A DNA stretch of 27,546 nt from a virus. Lineage: Duplodnaviria; Caudoviricetes. The notes beneath the pieces were generated by a model. The model was not told the DNA's origin and ran no database searches. It saw only the letters and a list, made by a program, of their open reading frames with translations. A program made the translations under genes and the position numbers. Shown in pieces: positions 10,218-26,552 of this stretch (the first letter of the stretch is position 1; every line of letters begins with the position of its first letter). The stretch covers positions 1 through 27,546 of the IMG/VR virus record IMGVR_UViG_3300010289_000003; one strand, written 5' to 3'.

Positions 10218-10528
10218 CTGCCATAGTGAGTCAGAAGCTCTTGCACTCCGGCTGCAGCGATAAGCATAATCAGGACGTGTATATCCGGTGACGGCGAACA
10301 GTACCAGGCCAGGCCCAACAAGACAGAAAACCATACCCCGGTGCAGAAGCGACAATGCCACCCATCCGCGAACATATCCCAGAAGGGATGTTTCTCCGCA
10401 GCCGTTTCTAGCGCAATCCGTATGCGCCGGAAAACGTAAAACGGCCCATCGTCCAGTGCTACCAGTGAGGACAGGCGATAGGCAGCTAGCGCGATGATCA
10501 AAACTGAAGCCAGTGCATCACTCATCAT
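10214..10528 (-). CDS. DUF1360-like small membrane protein
   Basis: LAAYRLSSLVALDDGPF...CRFCTGVW plus hydrophobic helices; GGGGAG SD before ATG 10528/10525. Confidence 0.7.
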   Translation of the reverse strand: MMSDALASVLIIALAAYRLSSLVALDDGPFYVFRRIRIALETAAEKHPFWDMFADGWHCRFCTGVWFSVLLGLAWYCSPSPDIHVLIMLIAAAGVQELLTHYGR

Positions 10529-12236
10529 CAGCTTCTCCCCGCGCGTCGTCACTCGCGTTCCTGGCCCGACGGGGGCGGCGTTTCCGCTCCTCGATAACAA
10601 CGTTGTTAACATTGTCAACCTGCACCTGAACCGGTTTCTCTTCGCGTAATTCGTTCGGAATATCACGCGAAACGACACGAAAAACACCGGTTGCAAGCAA
10701 GCCCGGTACATCCCTGGTGTCTACAGCGACCAGACGATAACGACCTGTCAGGCCTGCTTTATAGGACCGGCCAGACACCTTGCCGATCCAGGTAGCTGCC
10801 CCAACTGAGTTGCCGGTGTATTCCATCAGCGTACTCGAACTGTCAACGTCCGGCACTTTCGTTTTTACACCGTAGACATCGGTTTGAATCCTCACCCTCT
10901 TTCTGCCACATCCAGCGCAAGCCATTGAATCACCTCCATCACCAGATCTTGTGTATAACTCAGGATATAATGCCTTTATACTTTCGAGGAACTGCCAGCG
11001 CGGTGTACCACGTCTCGTGGTTCTGTTTTGACCTTCCCTGCGGTAGCAATACCCTGCGTAGTCAAGATGCTTGCCGGCATATCCTGCGCGAGCGAGAGCA
11101 ATGTTAAAGGCCCAGTCCTCTCGCCCATCGCTCATCACCTCTGGGTATCCTCCGACTTCTTTCCACCAGCGGCGTTTGAACATAATGCCGGCGTGCATCG
11201 TGTTCTGGTGCGCAAGAAAAAGCAGCTCGCGTTCAACCGCTTCCATCCGAACCGTCTTTCTGTGCCCGTCGGTGCAGAAAACGATGTCGTCGCAGATTAC
11301 CCGGCCGGGGTTGCTTATCGCCGCTTCATACATTTTTGCCAGACGTTCCGGTTGATACCAGTCGTCCGCACTGAGGATTGTAATGTACTCCCCGTAGGCA
11401 GCTTCAATGCCGGTGTTGTTAGCAGCGGCCGTGCCGCGGTTTTTGCTGTGATGGATTACTCTTATCCCGTGCCGGTGATCGGCAAAACTGTCAGCGATGT
11501 CACCACTCCCGTCGGTGCTTGCGTCATCAACAATTACGACCTCAAACGCCTGGAATGTTTGTGCCATCAGGCTTTCAAGGGCCTGTTTGAGATAACGACC
11601 GTAATTGTACAGCGGTACGATAACAGATACAAGCGGTGGAGTGTGAAAAAAAACATCCCTCTTTGCCGGCTCGTCACGTAAAGCGCGTTCTATAGCCGCC
11701 CCAAAGCGCCTGCGCGGCTCGTGAACGAGACCGGACAGGCCTGTAACAGGAGAAACAGAAAACCCGCTCCTACAAGCCCTGACCTGCCACTCGGCCGTTG
11801 CCCCCCACAAGGGGAAAAGATGGGCATTGAACCCGCCGATCTTATTCAGCGCCCGGCGTGCAATGGCCATAAATGTTCCCTGCACGTAGCCGGTCGGCCA
11901 AGCGGGGTTGTTAAATACTCCATCGCCATAACATCCTGCACTGCCCTGTCCAAGAAAAGCGCTGGCAGTGTGAAAACACTGCTCACTGGTGAACCAGACA
12001 TCCTGGTTAATAACCACAACATCGCTGTCACCGGCTGCCTCGAAACCGACATTACAAGCGCCGGAAAAATACCCTCTCTCCTGCAGGTTTATGACCTGCG
12101 CATTTCCATTCTGCACCTCTGGAGGTTTGCTGCCGGCATCGTTAACGATGATGACCGGCATATCTCTTGGTAAGCTGTCTAACAAGCGGGCGATAGTCTT
12201 GTGTCCGTGCCAGAATGGAACTATCGCGGTCAACAT
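10518..12236 (-). CDS. Two-domain family-2 glycosyltransferase with C-terminal extension
   Basis: Two GT-A starts (LTAIVPFW...IIVND...GYFSGACNVG...INQD and VSVIVPLYNYGRYL...IVDDASTD...NRGTAAANNTG...LSADD...EDW). The C-terminal 135 aa have their own SD and ATG. Confidence 0.9.
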   Translation of the reverse strand: MLTAIVPFWHGHKTIARLLDSLPRDMPVIIVNDAGSKPPEVQNGNAQVINLQERGYFSGACNVGFEAAGDSDVVVINQDVWFTSEQCFHTASAFLGQGSAGCYGDGVFNNPAWPTGYVQGTFMAIARRALNKIGGFNAHLFPLWGATAEWQVRACRSGFSVSPVTGLSGLVHEPRRRFGAAIERALRDEPAKRDVFFHTPPLVSVIVPLYNYGRYLKQALESLMAQTFQAFEVVIVDDASTDGSGDIADSFADHRHGIRVIHHSKNRGTAAANNTGIEAAYGEYITILSADDWYQPERLAKMYEAAISNPGRVICDDIVFCTDGHRKTVRMEAVERELLFLAHQNTMHAGIMFKRRWWKEVGGYPEVMSDGREDWAFNIALARAGYAGKHLDYAGYCYRREGQNRTTRRGTPRWQFLESIKALYPELYTRSGDGGDSMACAGCGRKRVRIQTDVYGVKTKVPDVDSSSTLMEYTGNSVGAATWIGKVSGRSYKAGLTGRYRLVAVDTRDVPGLLATGVFRVVSRDIPNELREEKPVQVQVDNVNNVVIEERKRRPRRARNASDDARGEADDE

Positions 12237-12261: not shown

Positions 12262-12296
12262 GCTGGCAAGCGCACCAAAATAGTGCGCTTGCCAGC
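12262..12296 (-). terminator. Stem-loop after the capsid gene (partial terminator or mRNA stabiliser)
   Basis: Perfect 14-bp stem GCTGGCAAGCGCAC / GTGCGCTTGCCAGC with 7-nt loop; only a weak U tail. Confidence 0.7.
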
Positions 12297-15352: not shown

Positions 15353-15390
15353 GGCAAGAACCCCACACGCGGGCGTGTGGGGTTCTTGCC
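15353..15390 (-). terminator. Long hairpin closing the leftward cassette transcript
   Basis: Perfect 18-bp inverted repeat GGCAAGAACCCCACACGC / GCGTGTGGGGTTCTTGCC, 18 nt past the stop at 15409. Confidence 0.75.
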
Positions 15391-15830: not shown

Positions 15831-15859
15831 ATCATATCATACTTTCCTCAATTTGTCAA
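15831..15859 (-). promoter_or_regulatory. Leftward sigma70 promoter
   Basis: TTGACA-aattgaggaaagtatga (17)-TATGAT with extended -10. Confidence 0.85.
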
Positions 15860-15919
15860 GGGGTTTCGGGGATGCAGAAACCGAAATTCTTAAAAATCTG
15901 GAGAAATTCTTAAAAATGC

Positions 15920-15948
15920 TTGACAAATTGCGAAAAGTATGCTAAAAT
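15920..15948 (+). promoter_or_regulatory. Rightward sigma70 promoter P1
   Basis: TTGACA-aattgcgaaaagtatgc (17)-TAAAAT. Confidence 0.85.
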
Positions 15949-16026
15949 GTAGACAACAATTTGATAAGGGAGAGTGAGATGCAGAAACCGAAATTCTTAA
16001 AAATCTGGCGAAATTCTTAAAAATGC

Positions 16027-16055
16027 TTGACAAATTGAAAAAAGTGTGATAAAAT
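16027..16055 (+). promoter_or_regulatory. Rightward sigma70 promoter P2
   Basis: TTGACA-aattgaaaaaagtgtga (17)-TAAAAT. Confidence 0.85.
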
Positions 16056-16090
16056 GTAGACAAATAAAGATGGATGAGGAGGTAAATAAA

Positions 16091-16579
16091 ATGAAGAAGA
16101 TCATAAACTTGAGGGGCGAGCTTTTTGGCAAGATGAAGGCTTTGGGTCATTACGACAGCAGGTTCTCCGGCCACTGGGCAAAGCAGGTCACGGACGTTAA
16201 TCCGAACGGAACCAACGGGTACGCCTTCGAGGGGGAGTTCATCCCCGGAGGTGATGTGGAGGTCGAGGTCGGCAACCATCTGTTTCTAGTTGCCACGGTT
16301 GCCGGCTCACGCAAGTACCAGACAAAATATTACCGGTTGTTCGTGATGACCCAAGACGGAGAACTGGTGGCGACGGAGTACGCCACCACGGACGAAATAG
16401 GCGGCTGGGCACTCCGGCTCCGTCAACCCGCGATCGACATCCTGAGCTCATTTCGGACTCAGCAGCCTCAGCCGGAGGCTCAGGCGGAGGACACGGTTGT
16501 TGAGAACCCCCTGGCCGTGTTCTCAGATGAGCAGATCCGCGCGGAGTTCGTCCGGCGCGGACTGACACTGACACTGTAA
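16091..16579 (+). CDS. Hypothetical protein (first gene of the rightward cassette transcript)
   Basis: Start re-called to ATG 16091 (SD GAGGAGGT); 162 aa; family not recognised. Confidence 0.8.
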   Translation: MKKIINLRGELFGKMKALGHYDSRFSGHWAKQVTDVNPNGTNGYAFEGEFIPGGDVEVEVGNHLFLVATVAGSRKYQTKYYRLFVMTQDGELVATEYATTDEIGGWALRLRQPAIDILSSFRTQQPQPEAQAEDTVVENPLAVFSDEQIRAEFVRRGLTLTL

Positions 16580-16590
16580 CGGTGGCCCAC

Positions 16591-16623
16591 GAAGGTGGGG
16601 GATGGCCTCCATCCCCCACCTTC
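16591..16623 (+). other. Intergenic stem-loop (processing, stabiliser or partial terminator)
   Basis: 15-bp perfect stem GAAGGTGGGGGATGG-cct-CCATCCCCCACCTTC, no U tract, ends 3 nt before the AGGAGG SD. Confidence 0.7.
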
Positions 16624-16639
16624 ATTAGGAGGAAAAGAG

Positions 16640-17026
16640 ATGGACGTGCCAATGCCAAGTGGTTTTTCTGTTAAGGTGGCCCACGTGGCCGCAGCCTGCG
16701 GCCTACTCCCACCTGGTTTCGACCGGTGGGAGCTTGCCGACGTCCACGGCTGGACGGTAGCCCACGTGGCCGCCTCCCGCGGCAAGCTCCCCCCGGATTT
16801 CGACCGGTGGGAGCTTGAGGATGCCTGGGGCTGGACGGTGGCCCACGTGGCCGCCGCCAACGGCAAGCTCCCACCCGATTTTGACCGGTGGGAGCTTGCC
16901 GACGTCCACGGCTGGACGGTGGCCCACGAGGCCGCCGCCAACGGCCTACTCCCACCTGATTTTGACCGGTGGGAGCTGGAGGACGAAAGCGGCTGGACTG
17001 TGGCCCAAGCGGCCGCCGAACACTGA
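16640..17026 (+). CDS. 27-aa ankyrin-like repeat protein 1 (128 aa)
   Basis: SD AGGAGG, ATG 16640; repeats GWTVAHxAAxxGxLPPDFDRWELxDxx. Confidence 0.85.
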   Translation: MDVPMPSGFSVKVAHVAAACGLLPPGFDRWELADVHGWTVAHVAASRGKLPPDFDRWELEDAWGWTVAHVAAANGKLPPDFDRWELADVHGWTVAHEAAANGLLPPDFDRWELEDESGWTVAQAAAEH

Positions 17027-17093
17027 CCCCCCCCCCGCCGGCTTCAACCAGCATTTGGTGGGCCGCGCATACCGACCACGCGGAGGAGACAAA

Positions 17094-17798
17094 ATGGACA
17101 GGCAACCAGATGCTACAGCACGACTCATCGAAGCCGCCAAGTGCGGCAAGCTCCCCGCCGGTTTCGACCGGTGGGAGTTAGCCTATGAGGACGGCTGGAC
17201 GGTGGCCCACGCAGCCGCCGCCTACGGCCTACTCCCACCGGGTTTCGACCGGTGGGAGCTGGCTGACATCTGCGGCTGGACGGTGGCCCACGTGGCCGCC
17301 AAGTGCGGCAAGCTCCCACCTAATTTCGACCGGTGGGAGCTTGCCGACCGCAACGGGTGGACGGTTGCCCACGAGGCTGCCGCCTACGGCAAGCTTCCAC
17401 CTGATTTCGACCGGTGGGAGCTGTCCGCCGGCCCTAGCGGCTGGACGGTGGCCCACGTGGCCACCAAGTGCGGCAAGCTCCCACCTGATTTCGACCGGTG
17501 GGAGCTTGAGGATACCTACGGCTCGACGGTGGCCCACGTGGCCGCCTCCCGCGGCGACCTCCCCCCGGATTTCGACCGGTGGGAGTTGGTGGACGACTGC
17601 GGCTGGACGGTGGCCCACGTGGCCGCCCAGCACGGCAATCTCCCCCCGGATTTCGACCGGTGGGAGTTAGCCGATCGTGACGGCTGGACTGTGGCCCACG
17701 AGGCCGCCGCCAACGGAAACCTCCCACCTGATTTCGACCAGTGGGAATTGGTGGACGAGAGCGGCTGGACTGTGGCCCAAGCGGCCGCCGAACACTGA
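17094..17798 (+). CDS. 27-aa ankyrin-like repeat protein 2 (234 aa)
   Basis: SD GGAGGAG, starts MDRQPDATARL, ends GWTVAQAAAEH. Confidence 0.88.
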   Translation: MDRQPDATARLIEAAKCGKLPAGFDRWELAYEDGWTVAHAAAAYGLLPPGFDRWELADICGWTVAHVAAKCGKLPPNFDRWELADRNGWTVAHEAAAYGKLPPDFDRWELSAGPSGWTVAHVATKCGKLPPDFDRWELEDTYGSTVAHVAASRGDLPPDFDRWELVDDCGWTVAHVAAQHGNLPPDFDRWELADRDGWTVAHEAAANGNLPPDFDQWELVDESGWTVAQAAAEH

Positions 17799-17853
17799 AA
17801 CCTCCAACCAGCATTTGGTGGGCCGCGCATACCGACCACGCGGAGGAGACAAA

Positions 17854-18606
17854 ATGGACAGGCAACCAGATGCTACAGCGCGACTCCTCGAAGCCGCCAA
17901 GTGCGGCAAGCTCCCCGCCGGTTTCGACCGGTGGGAGTTAGCCTATGAGGACGGCTGGACGGTGGCCCACGCAGCCGCCGCCTACGGCAAGCTCCCCCCG
18001 GATTTCGACCTGTGGGAGCTAGCCGACCGCAACGGGTGGACTGTGGCCCACGAGGCCGCCGCCCGCGGTACGCTTCCAGCCGGCTTTGACCGGTGGGATC
18101 TCGAGGATGCCTGGGGGTGGACTGTGGCCCACGAGGCCGCCGCCCGCGGCGACCTCCCACCTGATTTCGACCGGTGGAAGCTGTCCGCCGGCCCTAGCAG
18201 ATGGACGGTGGCCCACGAGGCCGCCGCCCGCGGCGACCTCCCACCTGATTTCGACCGGTGGGAGCTAGCTGACATCTGCGGCTGGACGGTGGCCCACGTG
18301 GCTGCCGCCCGCGGCGACCTCCCACCTGATTTCGACCAGTGGGAATTGGTGGACGACTGCGGCCGCACAGTTGCCCACGTGGCCGCCACCTACGGAACAC
18401 TCCCCACCGGTTTCAGCCGGTGGGAGTTGGTTGACGACCTGGGACAGACGGTGGCCCACGTGGCCGCCGCCCACGGCAAGCTCCCAGCCGACTTCAGCCG
18501 GTGGGAGCTTGCCGACCGCAACGGGTGGACTGTGGCCCACGTGGCCGCCGCCCGCAGCGGCCTCCCCACCGGTTTCGACCGGTGGGAGCTGGTAGTACAG
18601 AGGTGA
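17854..18606 (+). CDS. 27-aa ankyrin-like repeat protein 3 (250 aa)
   Basis: Same leader and N-cap as protein 2; ends RWELVVQR. Confidence 0.88.
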   Translation: MDRQPDATARLLEAAKCGKLPAGFDRWELAYEDGWTVAHAAAAYGKLPPDFDLWELADRNGWTVAHEAAARGTLPAGFDRWDLEDAWGWTVAHEAAARGDLPPDFDRWKLSAGPSRWTVAHEAAARGDLPPDFDRWELADICGWTVAHVAAARGDLPPDFDQWELVDDCGRTVAHVAATYGTLPTGFSRWELVDDLGQTVAHVAAAHGKLPADFSRWELADRNGWTVAHVAAARSGLPTGFDRWELVVQR

Positions 18607-18608
18607 AA

Positions 18609-19019
18609 ATGGACGCAGCGCGATTTATCGAAGACGCTGCCCACGGCAAGCTCCCCGATGGATTCAGTCGGTGGGAGCTTGCCGACCAGTGGGGCTGGAC
18701 TGTGGCCCACGCAGCCGCCGCCTACGGCAAGCTCCCCGATGGATTCAGTCGGTGGGAGCTTGCCGACCACAACGGAATGACGGTGGCCCACGCAGCCGCC
18801 ACCAGCGGCACGCTACCCGATGGCTTTGACCAGTGGGAGCTTGCTGATCACGGCGGCTGTACAGTTGCCCACTACGCTGCTGCCCGCGGCGACCTCCCAC
18901 CTGATTTCGACCGGTGGGAGCTAGCCGACCGCAACGGAGTGACGGTTGCCAAAATGGCCGCCATCCACGGAAACCTTCCAGCCGGCTTTGACCGGTGGGA
19001 GTTGGTAGTACAGAGGTGA
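18609..19019 (+). CDS. 27-aa ankyrin-like repeat protein 4 (136 aa)
   Basis: SD GAGGTGA overlaps the previous stop; starts MDAARF, ends RWELVVQR. Confidence 0.88.
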   Translation: MDAARFIEDAAHGKLPDGFSRWELADQWGWTVAHAAAAYGKLPDGFSRWELADHNGMTVAHAAATSGTLPDGFDQWELADHGGCTVAHYAAARGDLPPDFDRWELADRNGVTVAKMAAIHGNLPAGFDRWELVVQR

Positions 19020-19021
19020 AA

Positions 19022-19753
19022 ATGGACGCAGCGCGATTCGTCGCAGCCGCTGCCCACGGCACACTCCCAGATGGATTCAGTCGGTGGGAGCTTGCCAACC
19101 GCAACGGCTGGACTGTGGCCCACGAGGCTGCCACCAGTGGTTACCTCCCCTCCGACTTCAACCAGTGGGAGCTTGCCGACCAGTGGGGCTGGACAGTCGC
19201 CCACGTTGCCGCCAAGCGCAGCAAGCTCCCCCCAGATTTCAACCGGTGGGAGTTAGCCGATCGTGACGGCTGGACGGTGGCCCACGAGGCCGCCGCCCAC
19301 GGCACGCTACCCGCCGGCTTCGACCGGTGGGAGCTAGCAGACCGCAACGGTGTAACGGTGGCCCACGTGGCCGCCAGGCACGGCAATCTCCCGACCGGCT
19401 TCAGCCGGTGGGAGCTAGCGAATGAGAACGGCTGGACTGTGGCCCACGAGGCCGCCGCCCACAGAAAACTCCCGGCCGGCTTCGACCGGTGGGAGTTGTC
19501 TGCCGGCCACAGCGGCTGGACTGTGGCCCACGAGGCCGCCTCCCGCGGCAAGCTCCCCGCCGGTTTCGACCGGTGGGAGTTGGTTGACGCCCTGGGACAG
19601 ACGGTGGCCCACGTGGCCGCCACCCACGGCACGCTACCCGCCGGTTTCGACCGGTGGGAGCTGGCAGACCGCAACGGTGTAACGGTAGCAAAAGTAGCCG
19701 CTGCATACGGAAACCTTCCAGCCGGCTTTGACCGGTGGGAGTTGGTGAGATAA
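19022..19753 (+). CDS. 27-aa ankyrin-like repeat protein 5 (243 aa)
   Basis: SD GAGGTGA; starts MDAARF, ends RWELVR. Confidence 0.88.
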   Translation: MDAARFVAAAAHGTLPDGFSRWELANRNGWTVAHEAATSGYLPSDFNQWELADQWGWTVAHVAAKRSKLPPDFNRWELADRDGWTVAHEAAAHGTLPAGFDRWELADRNGVTVAHVAARHGNLPTGFSRWELANENGWTVAHEAAAHRKLPAGFDRWELSAGHSGWTVAHEAASRGKLPAGFDRWELVDALGQTVAHVAATHGTLPAGFDRWELADRNGVTVAKVAAAYGNLPAGFDRWELVR

Positions 19754-19782
19754 GCGCAGACCAATCACGCGGAGGAGAAAAA

Positions 19783-20364
19783 ATGGACAGGCAACCAGAT
19801 GCTACAGCGCGACTCCTCGAGGCCGCCGCCCGCGGCAAGCTCCCCGCCGGTTTCGACCGGTGGGAGCTTGCCGACATCTGCGGCTGGACGGTGGCCCACG
19901 TGGCCGCCACCCACGGCACGCTACCCGCCGGTTTCGACCGGTGGGAGCTGGCAGACCGCAACGGTGTAACGGTGGCCCACGTGGCCGCCGCCTACGGAAA
20001 CCTCCCACCCGATTTTGATCAGTGGGAGTTGGAAGACGCAAGTGGACGGACGGTGGCCCACGTGGCCGCCGCCCGCGGCAAGCTCCCCCCGGATTTCGAC
20101 CTGTGGGAGCTAGCGGACACCTACGGGTGGACGGTGGCCCACGAGGCCGCCAAGATGGGCAAGCTCCCCGCCAGTTTCGACCTGTGGGAGATGGCGGACA
20201 CCTACGGCTGGACTGTGGCCCACGAGGCCGCCGCCAACGGCACGCTACCCGCCGGCTTCGACCGGTGGGAGATAGACGACTGGGCTGGCTGGACTGTGGC
20301 CCAAGCGGCCGCCGAACACGGCAAGCTCCCCGCCGGCTTTGACCGGTGGGAGCTGGTGAGGTAA
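19783..20364 (+). CDS. 27-aa ankyrin-like repeat protein 6 (193 aa)
   Basis: SD GGAGGAG; starts MDRQPDATARL, ends RWELVR. Confidence 0.88.
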   Translation: MDRQPDATARLLEAAARGKLPAGFDRWELADICGWTVAHVAATHGTLPAGFDRWELADRNGVTVAHVAAAYGNLPPDFDQWELEDASGRTVAHVAAARGKLPPDFDLWELADTYGWTVAHEAAKMGKLPASFDLWEMADTYGWTVAHEAAANGTLPAGFDRWEIDDWAGWTVAQAAAEHGKLPAGFDRWELVR

Positions 20365-20396
20365 GCGCAGACCAATCACGCGGGAGGGGAATTGAA

Positions 20397-20732
20397 ATGT
20401 ACAGAAATACAGATTTTACAATGCGTGAGATTCAAGATTCTGAGTATGGAGAATTGCTCCGTGCACTCGCTGTGAATCCGTTTGATGCAGAGGCGCGCGA
20501 GAAAGTGGCTGTGCTCCTGCGCAAACATAAGAGCACGCAAGAATACTACGGCGATTTGTACCGCTCAGAATACGCTTCTTGTCATAGACAGGGAGAGTAT
20601 GGTTTGGAAGTGTACCACAATTTCTCCGAACGGCTGAGAGAGTACTTCTTGTCGATCGGCGGAAATAGCCTGGCTGCAAACCGGTTAGCCAGGTTTGATG
20701 CAGAGGGATTTGTGGAGATGTTAGCGGGTTAG
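20397..20732 (+). CDS. Hypothetical helical protein (111 aa) embedded in the repeat array
   Basis: SD GGGAGGGG before ATG 20397; visibly lower GC than the repeat genes; family not recognised. Confidence 0.72.
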   Translation: MYRNTDFTMREIQDSEYGELLRALAVNPFDAEAREKVAVLLRKHKSTQEYYGDLYRSEYASCHRQGEYGLEVYHNFSERLREYFLSIGGNSLAANRLARFDAEGFVEMLAG

Positions 20733-20748
20733 AAATACAGAAAAAAAC

Positions 20749-20808
20749 TTGGCTGCCAAGCACGGCAATATCCCCACCGGTTTCAGCCGGTGGGAGTTGG
20801 TGAGGTAA
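20749..20808 (+). pseudogene. Orphan 3' end of a repeat gene (AAKHGNIPTGFSRWELVR*)
   Basis: In-frame translation of 20752-20808 matches the ends of repeat genes 5 and 6, including the following GCGCA. Confidence 0.8.
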
Positions 20809-20819
20809 GCGCACCCCCA

Positions 20820-20862
20820 AAAACAAACGCGGCCCGTGGTCTTTACGGGCCGCATTTGTTTT
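20820..20862. terminator. Bidirectional intrinsic terminator between the cassette and the terminase-portal operon
   Basis: AAAACAAAc-GCGGCCCGT-ggtcttt-ACGGGCCGC-aTTTGTTTT; U-rich tail on both strands, between convergent genes. Confidence 0.85.
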
Positions 20863-25301: not shown

Positions 25302-26552
25302 TCACCTCCTTTCCCAAAGATTATGGTCAACATCCACGACGTAGAAATGCGAGTCGAAAAGACGCTTTGAGAAGACGAAGATGTTGTTTCCGTCGTGGTC
25401 TAGCAGCCTGACAAGGTCTCCGTCCCACTCAGCGCATAACATAGCAAAGCAGGGATGAGTGTCCAGGCGGCAGTGGGATATTGCCGGGTTCCAGGCTGCG
25501 TAAAGCACATCGCGGTATGTTCCCCAGGTTGGGTGCGGGAATTTGTTCACGATAGCGTTATTGCGTATGATCACGCGCGCATAATCGTCTACCCGCACCC
25601 GCACATCGTCTGGAAACAGCGGAGCCATAAAGTCTGCGAAGTCCTCAAACAAGATATAGAAAACATCGGCATCCTCATCTGGCGACTCTTGAGCGCGGCG
25701 CTGCTCGTCGGCCTCATAGGCATACTTGATAAAATCACTGATTGTTGGGAACGTTTTGTTGTAGTAGCGGCGCACGAAATCGGGATAGCCAGATGGGGTC
25801 GGTTGGGTACAACCGTATGTGATGAGACCGGCTGCCTGTGCCTCTGCGATCAACTCCGTCGCTGTGAAGGTTTGCCTCTTAGCAGTAAAGTATTTCTTGA
25901 TCAATGGGGGCAGCGAATCCCTATTGGTTGCTTTGATATGTGTATTACGGAAACGGAGCAATTCGGTATACAAGACCTCAGCGCCGGCGTTTTTGATCGT
26001 CGAGACATAGTGCGCCGGGTTCGGCACACATTCTGGTATGTAGGGTATGCAATACACCACAACCCCGTGTCCCATACCGGCGAGTTTCTCGATACAATCC
26101 AAGCGATATGCAACCGATGGGGCGCCTGGTTCGATCTCCTGCCTGATGTTCTCGTCAAGGGTAGTCAGCGTAATGGCGAAGACGGACGGTGGGAGCATAG
26201 CGGCGATGTCGAGGAGAAACGAGCCGGTCTTAGTCTGGAAAGAGACCGGCACGTTTGAGTCAATGCAAGCTCTGACAATCGCTTGCGTATACTCCTGGTT
26301 GGATGGGCAAAACGGGTCAGTATGGTTGGAAATTACGATAGGATAACCGCGTGTGATGAGCTGAGCGATTGTGTTGGAATATTGATCAGGACGCACAATT
26401 GTGTTAAGCGTGCCCGAAAACTCAAGGTGAGTGGGGAAATGGGACCGGCGCAGGTACTGGTAGCAGTACGCGCACCCATAATCGCACTTCCCGTATGAAA
26501 GCTCCAGCGGAAATGGGCTTAGGAGGAACTCGCCGAAATATAGTTTAAGCAC
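25302..26552 (-). CDS. Radical SAM enzyme, spore-photoproduct-lyase-like (SPL/SplB) family
   Basis: CDYGCAYC (CxxxCxxC), TDPF, FQTK, ITLTTLD...IEPGAPSVAYRL; extra C-terminal region of approx. 170 aa. Confidence 0.9.
   Translation of the reverse strand: MLKLYFGEFLLSPFPLELSYGKCDYGCAYCYQYLRRSHFPTHLEFSGTLNTIVRPDQYSNTIAQLITRGYPIVISNHTDPFCPSNQEYTQAIVRACIDSNVPVSFQTKTGSFLLDIAAMLPPSVFAITLTTLDENIRQEIEPGAPSVAYRLDCIEKLAGMGHGVVVYCIPYIPECVPNPAHYVSTIKNAGAEVLYTELLRFRNTHIKATNRDSLPPLIKKYFTAKRQTFTATELIAEAQAAGLITYGCTQPTPSGYPDFVRRYYNKTFPTISDFIKYAYEADEQRRAQESPDEDADVFYILFEDFADFMAPLFPDDVRVRVDDYARVIIRNNAIVNKFPHPTWGTYRDVLYAAWNPAISHCRLDTHPCFAMLCAEWDGDLVRLLDHDGNNIFVFSKRLFDSHFYVVDVDHNLWERR

Follow-up and report, generated by a model that had tools for sequence, protein, structure and literature searches.

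Template switching by DNA polymerases is reported to perfect and to preserve short inverted repeats, coding DNA included, and homogenisation of the two arms has been reported for coding DNA of phage T4, E. coli and yeast, first in T4, according to the parts of the two accounts considered here (PMC5941160, PMC8604942). Candidate RNA anti-CRISPRs (Racrs) are, in the portion of their description drawn upon, solitary, located outside open reading frames and at least 90% identical to a CRISPR repeat (PMC10651486). Here we analyse a stretch of 27,546 nt from a phage (Duplodnaviria; Caudoviricetes; IMG/VR record IMGVR_UViG_3300010289_000003, positions 1 to 27,546; hereafter the window), in which an array of six repeat genes (16640-20364) encodes 42 units of 27 aa. 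In one half of the 81-nt unit the codons for the peptide GKLPP face those for RWELA and form a hairpin stem. This is a real, lineage-restricted coding palindrome of a known kind, situated in an apparently undescribed short ankyrin variant. With moderate confidence we interpret it as a quasi-palindrome imposed by the peptide, which was likely perfected by template switching of the polymerase, was multiplied by duplication and is at present decaying. As the palindrome is missing from the majority of relatives that have this protein repeat, it is likely a by-product of replication and not a working signal.

The hairpin within the repeat array

In the best units GGC AAG CTC CCA CC pairs codon for codon with the codons of R-W-E-L-A. 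The preliminary description of the window had claimed that 16861-16875 pairs perfectly with 16887-16901 and that the same stem recurs further downstream. Both segments are indeed exact reverse complements and form a perfect 15-bp inverted repeat with an 11-nt loop over the GKLPP and RWELA codons (16861-16901), and a second perfect 15-bp inverted repeat is present at 17306-17346. The further suggestion that the stem holds across the array stands with regard to pairing, which is stronger than in codon-shuffled controls, but not with regard to the 15-bp stem itself, which is perfect in only 2 of 43 units. The outer 11 bp are perfect in 6/43 units and 14 bp in 2/43. Units were counted by their protein motif, a DNA anchor having recovered 39 of the 42 units and the orphan copy described below.

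The stem half of the unit has a mean folding energy of -20.1 kcal/mol as compared to -10.1 to -14.6 kcal/mol under four synonymous nulls (mean z -1.4 to -2.9), and in the ankyrin half the excess is less pronounced (z -0.4 to -1.9). A Watson-Crick run of at least 7 bp is found in 20 of 42 units, where three codon nulls predict 1.4, 3.2 and 7.0; such an excess of perfect arms with a short spacer over a codon-matched null is expected of an inverted repeat homogenised by template switching. At 37 °C, 36 of 43 units are predicted to form a core hairpin with a probability of more than 0.5, and therefore a run of imperfect hairpins is a fair prediction. The chain of hairpins of about 40 nt at 81-nt spacing envisaged earlier has to be amended in that the units are distributed over six separate genes with spacers. 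The sequencing runs containing the window are labelled "hot springs metagenome"; folding figures at 65 °C nearly equal those at 37 °C and carry no weight. As the 42 units share one or few ancestors, they do not represent 42 independent observations.

A stem closed by TTCG was correctly read at 18565-18586, in the last unit of gene 3, but it is the sole perfect 9-bp stem of this type (1 of 43 units), with a register that is off by one base. The tetraloop motif is cUUCGg; the closing pair here is U-A, and this candidate was rejected. The string ACCGGC-TTCA-GCCGGT (19394-19409), also read correctly, had been taken for a compensatory swap in a GFSR unit; it joins two common variants and is not significant. 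The orphan copy near 20772-20795 still pairs, as had been stated. Hiding of the next ribosome-binding site was rejected as a function, as the Shine-Dalgarno-like motifs sit downstream of the stem.

There is no sign that the stem is maintained in this array, and most units have a broken outer stem without compensation. Stem codons have a synonymous diversity of 0.37, the other codons of the array one of 0.25. Compared with the perfect stem, 105 of 473 cells are broken, 26 are G-U and six are new Watson-Crick pairs. Double changes giving a new pair amount to four, with 3.4 expected from permutation of the arms (p=0.46), and the arm permutation test over the array yields z=0.08. Codon 6, GGC, occurs eight times with non-pairing GAC and once with AGC. 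Covariation, which had been suggested as a check of the hairpin, is found neither in the array nor across the family, where the stem register ranks 12th of 90 registers in 22 homolog groups. A family-wide hint (Stouffer 1.94; z near 3 in 4 of 30 groups) was rejected after comparison with the 90-register background.

The protein repeat and its latent palindrome

The repeat is widespread, with 509 proteins among 8,000 scored candidates, 64 genome loci and 51 metagenome loci. Whole-protein scores exceed the Pfam cut-offs of Ank_4 (PF13637) and Ank_2 (PF12796), a structure model (predicted local distance difference test, pLDDT, 94.8) has one predicted helix per 27 aa, and the top Foldseek matches are ankyrin and DARPin chains with template modelling (TM) scores of about 0.6-0.7. 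The repeat profile aligns to the consensus ankyrin 1n0r with a single six-residue gap, from which it follows that both halves of the unit are ankyrin-derived. The phage repeat resembles ankyrin repeats in profile scores and fold. It differs from them in its length of 27 instead of 33 aa, with six residues missing at the position of helix 2, in its one predicted helix per unit instead of two, and in a conserved P-x-x-F-x-x-W. The variant is apparently undescribed: no account of a 27-aa, one-helix ankyrin variant was found in the open literature searched. Judging from the fold and the strong promoter matches upstream, the repeat proteins may be variable solenoid binders that are produced in the early phase of infection. 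In Deltaproteobacteria assemblies (L016-L076) the repeat is greatly expanded, with up to 356 distinct units in a single genome, and one homolog is named FAD-dependent thymidylate synthase, which suggests fusions.

In GC-rich DNA the conserved G-x-L-P and W-E-L-A yield about 9 of 14 pairs in the stem register. The best self-complementary centre of the family consensus peptide coincides with this register, with 8.8 of 14 pairs expected at a third-position GC content of 0.8, a self-complementarity within the range of shuffled peptides (p=0.55 and p=0.075). Modal units have 9-10 of 14 pairs in 6 of 24 other genomes and 12 of 14 in this phage. The residues K2 and P5, both required for a perfect stem, are present in 6% and 14% of homolog units.

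None of these 24 other genomes (23 bacterial assemblies and one virus) shows an excess of stems, as would be expected if homologs did not keep the palindrome, but one further phage lineage does. In the 24 genomes 25 of 1,450 units reach 7 bp, where about 32 are expected, and the mean folding z, for which at most 30 random units were scored per genome, ranges from -0.46 to +0.26 in 23 of them, a six-unit locus being the exception at -1.71. Four metagenome groups do not exceed the null either, with at least 7 bp in 0/107, 0/78, 0/7 and 2/28 units, and the first of these groups too has several repeat genes per contig. L206, which is identical to the window, was omitted from the set of metagenome loci; fewer than two units were present in 5 of 50 loci. 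In the close relative L228, 3 of 5 units reach 7 bp. A pattern scan for the stem in viral contigs returned 121 stretches; a protein search among 126 new loci found the repeat only in this phage's own. The units of L228 (1612-3030) are near-identical in type to those of this phage and fused to a long N-terminus, which we take to be pentapeptide-repeat-like; one such unit is also present in sequencing run X2.

The further lineage with stems comprises six AT-rich loci with tandem repeat genes (L219, L225, L227, L229, L231 and L235), likely of jumbo phages, given their polymerase B-like genes, tRNAs and a 70-kb contig. Here 23 of 117 units reach 7 bp as compared to 1.1 under the null, the only excess in another lineage. 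All of these are Arg9 units (23/39, null 1.7), as opposed to 0/67 among Gln9 units. The stem units form two clades, one of gene-terminal and one of second units; one site is a C-G pair in one clade and an A-T pair in the other, and at pair 13-27 both C-G and T-A occur (p=0.025). L225 (6092-10548) and L227 (1-9701) have eight and at least seven repeat genes, respectively, with distinct first, second and terminal unit types. Within unit types of the AT-rich loci the excess is not significant (p=0.13).

Proposed arm copying and rival explanations

In the explanation we favour, the conserved peptide renders the DNA of the unit half-palindromic. Perfection of the arms may have started from a stem of about 7 bp, anchored through bases that the protein fixes, and template switching in a unit of the ancestral phage likely made one arm a copy of the other. 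Duplication would then likely have spread the perfected unit through the six genes, and the same switching may keep the stems of 7-11 bp in the Arg-bearing units of the AT-rich lineage. The selected product would be the protein, and the hairpin would have no job of its own. Template switching explains matching arms without selection and fits the stems in non-terminal units; the differing base pairs of the two AT-rich clades fit arm copying, but do not prove it.

Several points weigh against this interpretation. A clustered multi-base switch relative to a known parent was never caught; the units are too mosaic to reconstruct one. Stems of 7-9 bp are kept in three orphan units that are non-coding, one of them here and two in L225. 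Transitions that give G-U (22/129) outnumber those that give A-C (3/92, p=0.001), which hints at tolerance on the RNA level; 13 of the 22 fall at one codon, the A-C-giving class is no different from non-stem sites (6/85, p=0.32), and exclusion of codon 12 leaves p=0.14, an inexact value (denominator 105 in place of 89). In the AT-rich phages stems are enriched in last units near the stop (9/14 vs 12/83 internal units), and the stem half shares third bases with this phage at 0.50, a loop position included, in contrast to 0.14 in the ankyrin half. Selection on the hairpin predicts the same codon choices, and the expectations from a recombination signal would be largely alike.

It is possible, albeit not probable, that the stem is a selected RNA hairpin which appeared first in last units, where it protects or marks the 3' ends of mRNAs or processing sites of a polycistronic early transcript; the accompanying assumption that conversion brought the stem to internal units in this phage is equally tentative. 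Terminal enrichment in the AT-rich phages would be accounted for in this way, but it is absent in the window (2/4 vs 14/30, p=0.61) and in other groups, it is not significant within unit types as mentioned above, and second units of the AT-rich phages have stems too. The asymmetry of G-U over A-C, the stems of the orphan units and the frequency of G at base 27 of the unit (0.53 vs 0.19 in genome usage), the sole codon position with a large surplus, are consistent with a role of the RNA. The stem sites here are not conserved, however, covariation does not exceed background, with a signal in the AT-rich group alone, and no Rfam family reached its cut-off (10 weak matches).

It is rather doubtful that last units double as a conserved hairpin marking the ends of cassettes, with whole genes swapping in the early island, and no less doubtful that such a signal was kept in two unrelated phages of opposite base composition. 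If true, the phage would encode a recombining library of variable solenoid binders, with the protein repeat itself serving as recombination site; such a cassette system would have this site written into the codons of the cargo.

Shuffling of the units themselves is supported, since they are mosaic, runs X1-X3 show variation between strains and contigs of other runs carry unit combinations absent from the window; these contigs are short and cannot order units, and many of their joints are the array mapping onto itself. We regard it as unlikely that the stem acts as a single-stranded DNA signal for recombination or slippage, similar to attC or PeSL elements, which shuffles units and captures foreign genes as cassettes. 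The preliminary description had offered such a signal as one option, of which the mosaic nature of the units holds, but clustering of crossovers at the stems was not found, which leaves it weak. Rank correlation is at most 0.24 across any boundary, linkage peaks rather than dips inside the stem, and the only five identical tracts of at least 45 nt have scattered ends. Consistent with capture of genes, L225 has an unrelated 105-aa gene upstream of a terminal unit that is non-coding and whose 8-bp stem is perfect, together with a terminator-like hairpin, in parallel to the 111-aa gene B, orphan unit and terminator-like hairpin of this phage. By contrast, three other repeat remnants behind unrelated genes, at 16579-16592 of the window and at about 1445-1420 and 140-90 of the strain L081 (99.8% identical), lack the stem. 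The tyrosine integrase PF00589 was found in neither of two incomplete records, nor was the REP-associated tyrosine transposase (RAYT, PF01797) in two records that are 48% and 17% complete. Plain homology between 81-nt units is, moreover, sufficient for recombination.

Pure chance combined with a founder effect, in which complementary codons of an ancestral unit were amplified without any copying of arms, appears unlikely as well. The consensus units of GC-rich homologs are only 3-4 changes away from a perfect stem, the 42 units are pseudo-replicates, the window was picked from very many for its striking look, and terminal units of the AT-rich phages keep ancestral codons at non-stem sites too. 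Nevertheless, among 2,000,000 units simulated from homolog codon frequencies, 315 had at least 11 bp and 3 had 14 bp (1.6e-4 and 1.5e-6, values likely too small as positions were treated as independent), and two further clades possess perfected stems of their own.

It is very improbable that the second half of the unit was born by inverted duplication, thereby making new protein sequence. In the best units five pairs of codons are antisense to each other in register, but this half aligns to canonical ankyrin with one six-residue gap, the self-complementarity of the consensus is ordinary, and K2 and P5 are as infrequent among homolog units as given above. The earlier proposal of an inverted duplication of a "non-ankyrin" half thus fails because the half is ankyrin-derived, and survives as local arm copying with amplification. 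The equally remote idea that the units are CRISPR-repeat decoys (RNA anti-CRISPRs) can be dismissed on the published characteristics: a repeat-like loose end abuts a 33-nt match in gene A and the base of its stem has 5-6 nt in common with the unit stem, but the 16-nt core of the repeat is not matched anywhere in the array when up to three mismatches are allowed (one match elsewhere, 0.41 expected), and the units are coding and arrayed, unlike the candidates in the part of the source considered (PMC10651486).

The 33-nt match (window 16418-16450) was seen in run X1, flanked on one side by the CRISPR-repeat-like loose end and on the other by sequence unrelated to it. It is probably a host spacer against this phage, and the adjoining repeat-like end suggests that the host likely targets it. 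The CRISPR that bears this spacer is presumably type I-E-like.

The island and its comparison with known systems

The window belongs to a virus record that is about 45% complete; the gene for the terminase large subunit and those of structural type lie on its minus strand. A radical SAM gene neighbours the terminase region, and the structural genes include a family 2 glycosyltransferase (25302-26552 and 10518-12236); the gene running off the right end of the window is presumably DNA methylase-like. Two strong promoter matches open the plus-strand island (15,870-20,860) and a terminator-like hairpin (20820-20862, plus strand) closes it; between them lie gene A, the repeat genes, gene B and the orphan unit. 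GC content is 67-68% in the array as compared to about 55% in the remainder of the window. The two promoter matches are of sigma-70 type (11/12 matches each) and lie inside a 107-bp tandem duplication (15920-16055, plus strand); a third one (15831-15859) points leftward, with three found overall and 0.6 expected.

Gene A (16091-16579, plus strand, 162 aa) has no family match in searches with the protein from its second codon onward. It is followed by a 14-nt remnant of the ankyrin half of the repeat (16579-16592, plus strand; TVAHE codons), without the GKLPP/RWELA stem, and by a perfect 15-bp intergenic hairpin 5' of repeat gene 1 (16591-16623), which is unrelated to the unit stem. The repeat genes, all on the plus strand, are located at 16640-17026 (gene 1, 128 aa, 4 units), 17094-17798 (gene 2, 234 aa, 8 units), 17854-18606 (gene 3, 250 aa, 9 units), 18609-19019 (gene 4, 136 aa, 5 units), 19022-19753 (gene 5, 243 aa, 9 units, a predicted solenoid with one helix per 27 aa) and 19783-20364 (gene 6, 193 aa, 7 units). 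Gene B (20397-20732, plus strand) is unrelated to them, has the same leader as gene 6 and no relatives in viral contigs beyond itself (1 locus). The orphan unit (20752-20808, plus strand) is a non-coding copy of a gene-terminal unit in which an in-frame upstream Met is absent and a 9-bp stem with one G-T pair is kept.

In the related phage L082/L083 (59% in one head gene) the island is absent from the same place. L081 has a second promoter island beyond the right end of the window (L081 1-1800), in which a 74-aa and a 391-aa orphan gene are each followed by one of the stemless repeat remnants, together with a repeated promoter segment. The leaders of genes 2 and 3 (17027-17093 and 17799-17853) resemble decayed repeat units, with P-A-G-F-N-Q in one frame, and match an L081 remnant. 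Two intergenic perfect hairpins of 18 and 14 bp (15353-15390 and 12262-12296) have the outer hexamer GGCAAG/CTTGCC in common with the array stem (post hoc p of about 0.015); the 18-bp hairpin of this pair alone resembles the CRISPR-like core, to an extent expected by chance.

On the reading as a template-switch product, the phage would provide a clear natural example of a DNA palindrome that is seeded by a protein motif, perfected in replication and multiplied as the repeat expands. It also cautions that homolog and founder controls are needed where hairpins of repeat genes strike the eye as dual-coding. The side result may matter more, namely a widespread 27-aa ankyrin variant and its variable multi-gene arrays in phages.

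Integron attC sites have R'/R'' cores (GTTRRRY/RYYYAAC) and a length of at least 57 nt. The orphan unit after gene B is similar in forming an imperfect hairpin with a bulged base behind a foreign gene, but the units lack the cores and are far below 57 nt. Repetitive extragenic palindromes (REPs) and Rickettsia palindromic elements inside genes are likewise palindromes of 20-40 bp read in frame, as far as the portion of the source used here describes them; the phage unit differs in having no unpaired GTAG or CGTC end tag and in copies confined to the array (PMC3733652). The phage palindrome is, in addition, integral to a protein repeat whose homologs lack it, and RAYT was not found in the two incomplete records. 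The REP reading was rejected for the missing end tag and the absence of dispersal through unrelated genes.

The nearest architectural analogy is provided by the promoter early stem-loop (PeSL) cassettes of T4-type phages, which, in the part of the account considered, share with this locus a variable island, strong sigma-70-like promoters, hairpins, repeats and homolog-less genes (PMC2839356). PeSLs are intergenic promoter-terminator units, however, whereas the repeated element here is coding and promoterless (PMC2839356). With the quasi-palindromes attributed to template switching, as they appear in the accounts cited at the outset, the phage unit has in common a short imperfect coding inverted repeat, arms of 7-15 bp and amino-acid changes that extend the arms. 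It differs from them in that the single event is without a traced parent and that the palindrome lies inside a tandemly amplified protein unit, so that one switch event would have been multiplied about 42-fold.

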